The notes under the pieces are model-generated. The model saw nothing but the letters and a program-made list of their open reading frames with translations. It had not been told where the DNA came from and did no database searches. From Bacteroidia bacterium (GTDB taxonomy: Bacteria; Bacteroidota; Bacteroidia; UBA8524), in the NCBI GenBank assembly GCA_037968475.1, contig JBBKVO010000018.1, forward strand, positions 108,603 to 172,602: 64,000 nt of DNA, in the 5' to 3' direction. Made by a program: the position numbers and the translations under genes. Shown in pieces: positions 4,201 to 10,804 of the stretch. How positions within the stretch are numbered: position 1 is the stretch's first letter; each line of letters opens with the position of its first letter.

Positions 4201-4306
4201 ATTTTTTATTGATTGATTTGTTGATTGATTTGTTGATTTTGAGATTAACTGATTTTAAATCTATTAATTTTTTGTCATAGTTCGAGAACCTCACTATAAC
4301 AAAAAA

Positions 4307-7731: not shown

Positions 7732-7996
7732 TCTACAATTATACTAAGTTTGGGCTGAATTGCCTTACAGTATGGCGTTACTAATTTTTTGTTTGCCAGT
7801 ATGAGCGTCCGCTTGTGCTAAACAATAGGGTAGCATCCGCTACCTGCTTAAATGTTTCATCCACAATGCCTGCCGCACTCCTTCAACTTCATCCAGAAAA
7901 AACCACTTGTTATCCCGTCATGCCGACGCAGGTCGGCATCTCGTTGCCCAATAAAGTTTACACAGATTGAGATCCTGAAACAAGTTCAGGATGACA

Positions 7997-8030
7997 GCCA
8001 CACAAGGTGACAATGGTTAGTTTAGGCATT
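7997..8030. repeat. Short dispersed repeat CAGGATGACAG.CACAAGG.ACAATGGTTAG (copy 1)
   Basis: Near-identical to 39999-40032. A partial match (ATGACAGCCGCGCA) lies at 9425-9438. Confidence 0.5.
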
Positions 8031-8052
8031 GCTTAAAACTGTAAACCAAAAA

Positions 8053-8105
8053 CTTAAAACTGTTTACAAATCCTCAGCACGCTCGACCAACTTAAGGTCG
8101 GGTTG
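8053..8105 (-). pseudogene. Displaced, diverged copy of the rmuC 3' end (last ~11 codons plus stop)
   Basis: The minus-strand translation of 8062-8097 reads ...PDLKLVERAEDL*, the same as the true RmuC C-terminus (DPKLVERAEDL*) at 9464-9499. The DNA is about 85% identical to 9453-9510. Confidence 0.65.
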
Positions 8106-8185
8106 TTTTAAATTTTATAATTTAAGTTATCATTATTTTGTAGAGATAATATAAATTATTAAATTGCTTCAAACTATCGTAAATT

Positions 8186-8956
8186 ATGTGGAAAGGATTT
8201 AATTTAAAATTGGAAGGCTTTGAAAATTTAGATCAGTACGAAACTATTGGCAAAAGTCTCTATACCGCAAATAAAAATCAAGCTATGAAAGGGCTTGAGG
8301 AATATACTACTAAAAATGGTCGAATTAATGGTACCGAAATGAAAAAAGATTGGTTTCCTGAAATTATGGCCGATATTTTTATTTCGCATTCACATAGTGA
8401 TGAAAAAATTGCTGTTGCTTTGTCTGGGTATCTTCATGATAATTTTGGTTTAAATACATTTATCGACTCTTGTGTATGGGGGTACGCAAACGACCTACTG
8501 TTTGAAATTGATAAAAAAAACTGTTCTTCTGGTGATAATCTTTTCAGCTATGAGGCCAGAAATTATTCAACTAGTAATGTTCACATGATGTTAGCTACAG
8601 CAATATCTAAAATGATGGATAAAACAGAGTGTGTATTCTTTTTGAATACACAAAACTCAATTACCACTAACGTAGCTCTGATCTCTCAAACTGAATCACC
8701 ATGGATTTATTTCGAATTAGCGATGACGAAAATCCTTAGAGCTAATATTCCAAATAGATTAAAAGAGGAAACTAGAACCATGTCTGAATCTCTTAATAAG
8801 AAATCTACATTTGTTTATGAGTTAGATTTGAGTGACTTGATAGAAATTAGTTTTACTCACTTATTAAGATGGGAAAGGGAAAATAAGCTTACAGCTGCAT
8901 CAGCACTCGATAAACTATATGAAATAACGAATAGTAATGGCATTATCAGAGGATAA
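8186..8956 (+). CDS. TIR-domain protein (candidate NADase-type immune TIR)
   Basis: Residues 63-98 are DIFISHSHSDEKIAVALSGYLHDNFGLNTFIDS, the betaA-alphaA-betaB TIR signature. Residues 139-178 are AISKMMDKTECVFFLNTQNSITT...SPWIYFEL, matching the vvvlS.ny..S.WC..EL block with a candidate catalytic Glu at residue 177. The gene is AT-rich. Confidence 0.6.
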   Translation: MWKGFNLKLEGFENLDQYETIGKSLYTANKNQAMKGLEEYTTKNGRINGTEMKKDWFPEIMADIFISHSHSDEKIAVALSGYLHDNFGLNTFIDSCVWGYANDLLFEIDKKNCSSGDNLFSYEARNYSTSNVHMMLATAISKMMDKTECVFFLNTQNSITTNVALISQTESPWIYFELAMTKILRANIPNRLKEETRTMSESLNKKSTFVYELDLSDLIEISFTHLLRWERENKLTAASALDKLYEITNSNGIIRG

Positions 8957-9359
8957 AATCAAACATTTAGAGTTTATACAGAACATAATTACTCGTATGA
9001 ACTCTAATTCATTTCAGATTAAAGGCTTGGCAGTCACCCTAACAACTGGTTTATTGGCAGTTTATGGTGCAAATCCAAAAGTGATTTTTATATTCATAGG
9101 GATACTACCCAATATACTTTTTTGGCTCTTGGATACTTATTACCTACAAATGGAGTGGAAATTTAGAGGGCTGTATAATGATATTATAAACCCAGATAAT
9201 ACTATACCTTCATTTAGTATGGATATTATCAAATACAAAGGAAAAGAGTACTCGTTTGTTAATGTACTATGCTCTAAATCAATACTTCCTTTGTACCTAT
9301 CAATTATTGTTATTTTACTTTTGCTTGGTATTGGAATTCAATATAATTCCTGTGCTTAA
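8937..9359 (+). CDS. Small membrane protein with three predicted TM helices; candidate effector partner of the TIR protein
   Basis: 140 aa. It overlaps the upstream gene by 20 nt, which suggests translational coupling. Hydrophobic segments lie at about residues 28-47, 50-70 and 116-136. Confidence 0.5.
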   Translation: MALSEDKIKHLEFIQNIITRMNSNSFQIKGLAVTLTTGLLAVYGANPKVIFIFIGILPNILFWLLDTYYLQMEWKFRGLYNDIINPDNTIPSFSMDIIKYKGKEYSFVNVLCSKSILPLYLSIIVILLLLGIGIQYNSCA

Positions 9360-9463
9360 AAGATACTTGAATTATACTTTCTGATAAAAATCCCCTACCC
9401 GCCCATGTTTCGACTTCGCTCAACATGACAGCCGCGCAGCCATTAGTTATTACTTAAAACTGT

Positions 9464-10804
9464 TTACAAATCTTCTGCACGCTCTACCAACTTAGGGTCT
9501 AGCTGTTTAGATACTTTTGCTCCCAACTCGCGCAAAGTTTCGGCACGGCGTATAAGGTTTCCGCGCCCTTCGTAAAGCTTTTTCATACTGTCTTCATAAG
9601 CTCCCTGTGCCGATTTCATTTTCTTGCCCAAATCAATAAGGTCTTCGGTAAAGTTTACAAATTTATCGTACAAATCGCCGCCTTGCCTTGCTATCTCCAG
9701 CACGTTACGGTTTTGGTATTCTTGCTTCCAAATATTGGCTATGGTGCGCAGGGTGGCCAGCAGGGTACTACTGGTTACTATTACTATATTTTGATCGAAG
9801 GCATCATTAAATATTTCCGAATCGCTTTGCACTGCAACCGCAAAGGCCGATTCTATGGGGATAAACAACAATACAAAATCAGGCGTATCAATCTCGTACA
9901 ATTGGTGGTAGCGTTTTTCGCCCAGTTGTTTTATATGCTCGCGAACCGATTTTATATGCGCCTTTAGCCACGTTTGTTGCTCTTCTTGCGTATTGGCCGA
10001 TGAGTACCTTTCATACGCCGTTAGCGATACTTTTGAATCGACAATTATATTTTTATTGTCGGGCAGTTTTATAATAACGTCGGGCTGTTGGCGGCGACCT
10101 TCATCATTCACAAAACTTTCTTGCACACTATACTCTTGCCCCTTGGTAAGTCCGCTTTTCTCCAATACTTTCTCTAAAATCAGCTCACCCCAATTACCCT
10201 GTGTTTTGCTTTCGCCTTTCAGGGCTTTGGTTAGTCGGTTAGCATCCTCACGCATCCCTTGGTTTAGTTCGGTAAGTCCACGTATTTGCTCGGCTAGTCG
10301 GCTTTGCTCCTTGCTATTTTCAAGGTGGGTATCTTCCACCTTTTTCTTAAACTCATCCATCTTCTCCTTCAACGGGTTTAGCACTATATCTAAACTATCA
10401 CGGTTTTGACGAACAAATTTTTCGCTTTTCTCTTCAAATATTCTATTGGCAAGGTTTTCAAACTCTTTAGCTAAACGCTGCTGTAAGGCTTCAACCTCTT
10501 GTTTCTGTTCAGTAAGTTTTTGTTCAAGGTTTTGCAACTGGTTAGCCAGTCGGCTATTATCAGCCGTTAGGCTTAGGCTTTGTTTCTGGGCATCTTCAAA
10601 CTGGGTTTTAGCATCAAATAAAGTAGCCTGTAATGAGTTGGCTTTCTCTTCCAATCCTGCCTTCTCGGCAGTAATACGCGATATTTCTTGCCCACGCATA
10701 TCAAAATCGGTACGGGGCACCATTTGGGCTATTTTGTTTTTACCCAAAAGCCAGCCAATAAAAGCTCCTGCTACTAATCCCACCACTACAAACAGTATTT
10801 CCAT
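9464..10804 (-). CDS. rmuC: DNA recombination protein RmuC
   Basis: Coiled-coil N-terminal half and a conserved RmuC C-terminal nuclease-like domain (YHQLYEIDTPDFVLLFIPIESAF...). The ORF track extends to 10903. The start at MEILFVVVGLV (10804) is more likely, giving an N-terminal TM helix. Confidence 0.9.
   Translation of the reverse strand: MEILFVVVGLVAGAFIGWLLGKNKIAQMVPRTDFDMRGQEISRITAEKAGLEEKANSLQATLFDAKTQFEDAQKQSLSLTADNSRLANQLQNLEQKLTEQKQEVEALQQRLAKEFENLANRIFEEKSEKFVRQNRDSLDIVLNPLKEKMDEFKKKVEDTHLENSKEQSRLAEQIRGLTELNQGMREDANRLTKALKGESKTQGNWGELILEKVLEKSGLTKGQEYSVQESFVNDEGRRQQPDVIIKLPDNKNIIVDSKVSLTAYERYSSANTQEEQQTWLKAHIKSVREHIKQLGEKRYHQLYEIDTPDFVLLFIPIESAFAVAVQSDSEIFNDAFDQNIVIVTSSTLLATLRTIANIWKQEYQNRNVLEIARQGGDLYDKFVNFTEDLIDLGKKMKSAQGAYEDSMKKLYEGRGNLIRRAETLRELGAKVSKQLDPKLVERAEDL

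Follow-up and report, generated by a model that had tools for sequence, protein, structure and literature searches.

Positions 8186–9359 of the window, i.e., of the whole 64,000-nt stretch of DNA that was analyzed, hold two overlapping genes on the plus strand, namely thsB (8186–8956), which encodes a TIR-domain protein of 256 amino acids that would act in a type V Thoeris system as sensor and as synthase of the signal, and thsF (8937–9359), which encodes a candidate effector of 140 amino acids with three hydrophobic helices that carries the PADLOC name PDC-M50A and is supported by PADLOC, homology, AF2, hydropathy and gene linkage. The thsB reading frame opens with ATG and closes with TAA, and its translation is exactly the one quoted in the original prediction, from which thsF was absent. 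The two genes overlap by 20 nt at the 3′ end of thsB (8937–8956, plus strand), which is an operon-type junction. A search at E≤1e-3 returned 2416 ThsB homologs, nearly all of them 250–285 amino acids long and aligned over their full length, and since lengths are near-uniform and the alignments run end to end, thsB is certainly a real gene. Among 5.8 billion proteins, the nearest database entry, apart from that of the protein itself, is at most 50% identical.

Genomic setting of the cassette

The 1.3-kb cassette is flanked by a direct repeat. Its left flank (7986–8108) duplicates the right flank (9420–9508) in diverged form and holds a minus-strand remnant of rmuC that covers its final 14 codons plus the stop codon (KQPDLKLVERAEDL, then stop), while the right flank comprises the true 3′ end of rmuC (KQLDPKLVERAEDL, then stop) and the sequence beyond it. 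The best core of the repeat alignment spans 57 nt (8052–8108 vs. 9452–9508) at 88% identity, and the remnant is in frame. The presence of an rmuC remnant in the left repeat suggests that the cassette was inserted at the 3′ end of rmuC, and the low GC content of the cassette (31%, against 38.5% for the 64,000-nt window), together with the repeat flanks, suggests that it was acquired horizontally. The 1.3-kb cassette itself contains no recombinase gene. The region upstream (7815–8010) contains the GC-rich palindromes GTCATGCCGACGCAGGTCGGCATC and TCCTGAAACAAGTTCAGGATGA, which are the source of spurious short ORFs; TCCTGAAACAAGTTCAGGATGA occurs once in the window, and a related palindrome (TCAACATGACAGCC...) lies at 9420–9438, past thsF. 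A scan for sigma-70 promoters, a method ill-suited to this kind of genome, gave fewer sites than shuffled controls, and no TAnnTTTG motif was found upstream of thsB.

On one side the cassette is bordered by an NTP_transferase (rfbA-like) gene and on the other by rmuC, the latter identified by Pfam RmuC with an E-value of 1.5e-107, and both are housekeeping genes that fit a bacterial chromosome. This location outside any defense island counts against a defense module, as does the fact that Pfam calls neither protein, and both points can be claimed for the reading in which the TIR protein is a non-enzymatic scaffold, or in which the pair has a housekeeping task at the membrane that has nothing to do with phage defense. 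However, the base composition and flanking repeats point to a horizontally acquired cassette, the same thsF occurs in another genomic location on the metagenomic contig L087 (discussed below), the candidate catalytic glutamate of ThsB and the residues around it are invariant in the family, and anti-phage function has been demonstrated for homologs; a scaffold or housekeeping role is hence considered extremely improbable, and the pair is treated in the following as a defense module.

ThsB and its candidate catalytic glutamate

By its sequence, ThsB is a TIR protein, despite a sub-threshold Pfam score. TIR_2 (PF13676), one of the profiles proposed for checking the original prediction, matches with 15.8 bits, below the gathering score of 28, and ThsB residues 64–108 align with model positions 1–44 only. 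Weak TIR_2 matches were, however, obtained for 46 of 49 members of the ThsB family (best E-value 1.3e-5), and the PADLOC ThsB model PDLC00430 matches residues 1–250 of ThsB with 265 of its 269 positions (1–265; E-value 3.1e-73). It is the agreement between these two lines that bears out the TIR identity claimed at the outset, and the protein displays a predicted flavodoxin-like beta-alpha fold of the TIR type. An NCBIfam scan of ThsB gave no relevant match, PDB sequence searches, whether started from ThsB or from the family profile, yielded no TIR match of significance, and the Foldseek comparison of ThsB with the PDB was not significant (best E-value 0.11). Among 50,697 phage records, the sole ThsB matches are three 14-kb elements of Vibrio cyclitrophicus deposited as phages (PQ189363.1, PQ189372.1, and PQ189378.1; H51–H53), which encode a homolog with 46% identity that covers the first 185 residues of ThsB.

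The TIR core begins with the beta-A/alpha-A/beta-B block (residues 63–95, DIFISHSHSD...FIDS; 8372–8470, plus strand), which is recognizable from TIR_2, hhalign and its invariant residues. Of the two conserved blocks described originally, the second was correctly placed at residues 139–178, while the first, DIFISHSHSDEKIAVALSGYLHDNFGLNTFIDS, corresponds to residues 63–95 and not to 63–98. Ahead of the core lies an N-terminal extension (residues 1–60; 8186–8365, plus strand), for which AF2, conservation, and the PADLOC and PHROG models provide evidence. It consists of a conserved beta-strand (residues 3–8) with a MYRGFNL-type motif, a long and variable helix (residues 15–38), and an invariant W56-F57-P58 directly ahead of beta-A, and AF2 predicts residues 1–40 with a pLDDT of 82–95. 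As the N-terminal strand, the helix and W56-F57-P58 are found family-wide, the first 60 residues belong to the ThsB family fold and are not an unassigned appendage. The earlier view that the termini contain no recognizable domain is true for Pfam, but it is false for PDLC00430 and for PHROG 33368, the latter of which spans residues 3–247.

A further departure from canonical TIR domains is a family-specific extra helix (residues 122–147; 8549–8626, plus strand) with the motif RN.STSHVHMML, which is evident from AF2, entropy and hhalign. In the AF2 model it covers residues 122–146 and sits between alpha-B and beta-C, and hhalign passes over residues 122–147 as inserted sequence when canonical TIRs are aligned. 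With an entropy of 0.86 bits, this segment is the best conserved part of the family, above even the catalytic motif region, compared with a mean of 1.25 bits for the core and 1.2 bits for residues 1–8. The most variable regions are residues 9–45 and 185–256 (2.7–2.8 bits, with 2.8 bits for residues 9–45), the latter including a poorly predicted linker (residues 194–209) that is followed in the AF2 model by a pair of short strands and a pair of helices, which likewise go beyond the canonical TIR. Such high variability at the termini is compatible with a role in sensing or specificity, without proving it, and a phage-sensing surface formed by these parts, the N-terminal helix and the C-terminal third of ThsB, is a speculative idea.

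The candidate catalytic residue is E177 (codon GAA, 8714–8716, plus strand), the glutamate of PWIYFEL. In the AF2 model, the strand formed by residues 149–153 (beta-C) is followed by a helix of residues 172–184 (alpha-C) that bears E177, so that ThsB carries the W..E(I/L) motif with its glutamate at the start of alpha-C by which enzymatic TIRs are recognized. In an alignment of 282 distinct ThsB family members, E177 is present in all 280 sequences that are ungapped at this position. E177, W173, S67, H68, H70, D94, S95, and W98 are each kept in at least 276 of the 282, and S171 and E148 are equally fixed; the active-site segments as a whole, the extra helix 122–147 included, are near-invariant across the family.

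For comparison with characterized enzymes, a reference set was assembled from canonical TIR domains in Table S1 of the Thoeris preprint (Yirmiya et al., bioRxiv 10.64898/2025.12.03.692087) and the human SARM1 TIR, the sequence of which was checked against PDB chains. Alignments were made with hhalign in local mode, the global mode having misplaced the register of the catalytic region owing to a 45-residue insertion. The ThsB family aligns with the canonical TIR set with a probability of 91% and an E-value of 1e-6, and the alignment pairs E177 with SARM1 E642 and W173 with SARM1 W638. In the same register, E177 pairs with the WEIG glutamate of the Pseudomonas aeruginosa type III Thoeris TIR1. 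No usable hhalign alignment was obtained between the ThsB family and BcThsB of Bacillus cereus MSX-D12, because BcThsB belongs to a different TIR subfamily. The pairing with SARM1 E642 and the invariance within the family support the proposal that E177 is the counterpart of the NAD-cleaving glutamate, and its position in the catalytic pocket is suggested by the alignment together with the predicted secondary structure. SARM1 is a eukaryotic multidomain, NAD+-consuming effector with a TIR domain that acts as an NAD+ hydrolase and cyclase, and it differs from the ThsB family in having neither the N-terminal strand and helix, nor the extra helix 122–147, nor the C-terminal helices.

ThsF and its linkage to thsB

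The AF2 model of ThsF (pLDDT 90.8) contains helices at residues 5–45, 56–84, and 117–139, and the hydropathy profile agrees on three hydrophobic segments. ThsF matches all four PADLOC PDC-M50A models (PDLC04684–04687; best E-value 3e-42) as well as PHROG 19896. Pfam assigned no family to ThsF or to 41 close homologs, DUF2270 (PF10028) included, and one of seven more distant homologs gave a faint DUF2270 match (E-value 0.068 over 37 residues); the DUF2270 label used for ThsF in the preprint was probably assigned with profile methods of higher sensitivity. The Foldseek comparison of ThsF with the PDB was uninformative (best E-value 1.7), and SLATT, Macro and SIR2-SLOG identities were rejected, as the Pfam and PADLOC scans gave no match to any of them. 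The family is very large, with 1074 clusters at 90% identity and 5008 cluster representatives at 50% identity (E≤1e-3). PDC-M50 is an uncharacterized candidate label of PADLOC from 2023, of which no mention was found in the literature searched, and it seems to be what the ThsF family was called earlier. In plasmid records and in Pfam and NCBI annotation, ThsF homologs figure only as "hypothetical."

The invariant polar residues of ThsF flank the first two hydrophobic helices and fall into two regions. The first, toward the N-terminus of the first long helix, comprises R20, N22, N24, S25, and K29, while the second, just past the second helix, comprises the invariant D66, Y69, E73, and R77 as well as R74 and K75, which are conserved in at least 90% of sequences. 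The residues of both regions are candidates for a ligand pocket. In the preprint, ThsF is modeled as a ring of several protomers, with pockets of positive charge lying between them (bioRxiv 10.64898/2025.12.03.692087).

The linkage of the two genes was followed in 80 genome loci that encode ThsB relatives and for which flanking sequence was fetched, drawn from Bacteroidota, Bacillota, Cyanobacteriota, Planctomycetota, Verrucomicrobiota, Spirochaetota, and other phyla. A ThsF homolog lies beside the thsB relative, within the flanks that were fetched, in 66 of these loci; by HMM search, the partner is directly downstream in 55 and directly upstream on the same strand in 7. The spacing between the two genes in other genomes is mostly −17 to +22 nt. 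In three proteins (P0266, P0293, and P0315), a canonical TIR domain, a coiled-coil linker and a C-terminal ThsF-like module with three hydrophobic helices are fused in one chain. Taken together, conserved adjacency, changes in gene order and gene fusions speak for thsB and thsF being a functional pair. P0315 carries two TIR-like regions, and in a further protein, P0352, the ThsF-like module is joined to a different N-terminal region with several long hydrophobic stretches.

At the remaining 14 of the 80 loci no ThsF was detectable, and several of these lie at contig ends. At others of the 14, and on plasmids, ThsB relatives adjoin different effectors: SIR2 ThsA and a second TIR gene (L065, L066, L073, and L082), which corresponds to a type I arrangement, with SIR2 ThsA beside a relative on a B. 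cereus plasmid as well, a caspase-like gene at L024, and a macro-domain gene at L083, a plasmid from Priestia. The occurrence of one ThsB family beside several types of effector is what would be expected of an interchangeable producer of a signal. These neighborhoods bear on the alternative that the TIR protein is itself a standalone killer that depletes NAD+, with ThsF as a sensor, an anchor or an unrelated neighbor. Depletion of NAD+ is a common effector role among bacterial TIRs, which speaks for such a reading. The limitations stated in the preprint also allow for TIRs as effectors in unverified configurations (bioRxiv 10.64898/2025.12.03.692087). However, SIR2 ThsA (L065, L066, and L073) and the caspase-like protein (L024) are signal-activated effectors, and in the verified homologous system of Bacillus thuringiensis, externally added 3′cADPR is toxic to the cells that carry it, while the Tad1 sponge, which sequesters 3′cADPR, lowers defense (bioRxiv 10.64898/2025.12.03.692087). 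A standalone killer is therefore regarded as very unlikely, and the reading of ThsB as a signal producer for ThsF is retained.

Probable assignment to type V Thoeris and divergence of the putative sensor

Type V Thoeris consists of ThsB and ThsF, the latter being a three-helix membrane effector annotated as DUF2270, and type V systems show particular enrichment in Bacteroidota (Yirmiya et al., bioRxiv 10.64898/2025.12.03.692087). With the verified ThsB of B. thuringiensis DAR 81934 (preprint Table S1, IMG 2624526259), the protein encoded in the window shares 44% identity over 249 amino acids (E-value 6e-69), and with another member of the same TIR cluster, the ThsB of the type IX system in B. 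cereus VD021, 46% (E-value 9e-74). One of the retrieved homologs, P0389, is identical to the verified B. thuringiensis ThsB. An ORF of 141 amino acids with three hydrophobic segments begins 14 nt downstream of its gene, and the encoded protein is 36% identical to ThsF (E-value 1e-28) and matches PDC-M50A (E-value 1.8e-48), while hydropathy analysis found no hydrophobic segment in the upstream neighbor. The 141-aa protein was hence taken as the ThsF effector of the verified ThsB. As both genes are homologous to this verified pair, i.e., a ThsB homolog is followed by an adjacent three-helix ThsF, 8186–9359 can be read as a thsB–thsF module. Judged by sequence and by analogy, it is very probably a two-gene type V Thoeris module, in which ThsB would produce a cyclic ADP-ribose signal and ThsF would damage the membrane; the identity of only 36% between ThsF and the verified effector counts against this. 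Both the family and the system have been described already, and ThsB is a divergent new member.

In both the present locus and B. thuringiensis DAR 81934, thsB is followed by a gene for a three-helix membrane protein of about 140 amino acids, and both pairs match PADLOC PDLC00430 and PDC-M50A. The two loci differ in phylum, in their neighbors, in the low-GC cassette of the present locus, in the junction, which is a 20-nt overlap here and a 14-nt gap in B. thuringiensis, and by a large sequence divergence. With the type IX system of B. cereus VD021, the locus shares a ThsB of the same full-length family, but the type IX effector is a TIR-SLOG protein, and none is adjacent to the present thsB. 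The type I system of B. cereus MSX-D12 (ThsB and the SIR2-SLOG protein ThsA) follows the same logic and probably uses the same signal, 3′cADPR, whereas no SIR2-SLOG ThsA adjoins the present thsB and ThsF has no SIR2 or SLOG match in PADLOC or Pfam. Unlike in type II systems, the 140-aa partner has no Macro match.

By analogy with these systems, we infer that ThsB would be inactive until phage infection is sensed. Once activated, it would use NAD+ to make a cyclic ADP-ribose signal, in all likelihood 3′cADPR, with E177 as the catalytic residue. ThsF, presumably a small inner-membrane protein, would then bind the signal as a ring-shaped oligomer and damage the membrane, so that the infected cell would be stopped ahead of the release of phage progeny. 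What the signal is, that activation depends on phage, that ThsF oligomerizes and that the membrane is disrupted are all carried over from the homologous systems, and the nature of the signal is the weakest of these steps.

[quoted passage not shown] 1NLA3E (bioRxiv 10.64898/2025.12.03.692087). The identities of 44 and 46% to two 3′cADPR-producing proteins support the earlier suggestion that the TIR protein is a signal generator, yet 3′cADPR as the signal is uncertain because the second type V effector of the preprint was not triggered by it. A divergent ThsB might make a signal other than 3′cADPR, i.e., the locus could be a Thoeris-type module that uses another cADPR isomer, His-ADPR or another ADPR derivative. 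This would accord with the failure of 3′cADPR to trigger the 1NLA3E type V effector and the type IX effector, the type IX ThsB falling into the same cluster as the present protein, and with the low identities of ThsB to any other database protein and of ThsF to the verified effector. Against it stand the production of 3′cADPR by both characterized ThsBs of the same full-length family and the near-invariance of the active-site segments, extra helix included. A different signal is accordingly considered rather improbable, and 3′cADPR is kept as the preferred candidate.

The ThsF encoded at 4220–5426 of L087 together with its own thsB is 83% identical at the protein level and about 90% identical at the DNA level to that of the window, while the corresponding ThsB proteins are only 45% identical. 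DNA identity between the two loci rises sharply from ~35–55% to ~82–92% at about position 8950, that is, at the gene junction, and the neighbors in L087 are different (SLFN_AlbA_2, PNKP-like, and RNA ligase genes). The sharp break at the thsB/thsF junction looks like the exchange of a sensor on a conserved effector, and the notion that the ThsB allele of the window was swapped onto an otherwise conserved ThsF is put forward tentatively, as a minority possibility.

The locus leaves the current understanding of TIR immunity unchanged. It provides a Bacteroidota-type case of a system for which verification has to date come from Bacillus alone, ties the PADLOC candidate PDC-M50A of 2023 to ThsF, the effector that received its name in the 2025 preprint, as the same family, and reveals ThsF-like proteins as a very large family. 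The breakpoint that suggests a sensor swap, the duplication of the rmuC end at the flanks and the fusions of TIR to ThsF are of further interest. The sharp breakpoint is useful for the study of phage recognition by Thoeris sensors, and if the variable termini of ThsB are the surface that recognizes phage, the window and L087 would be a natural pair for mapping how the phage trigger is chosen.
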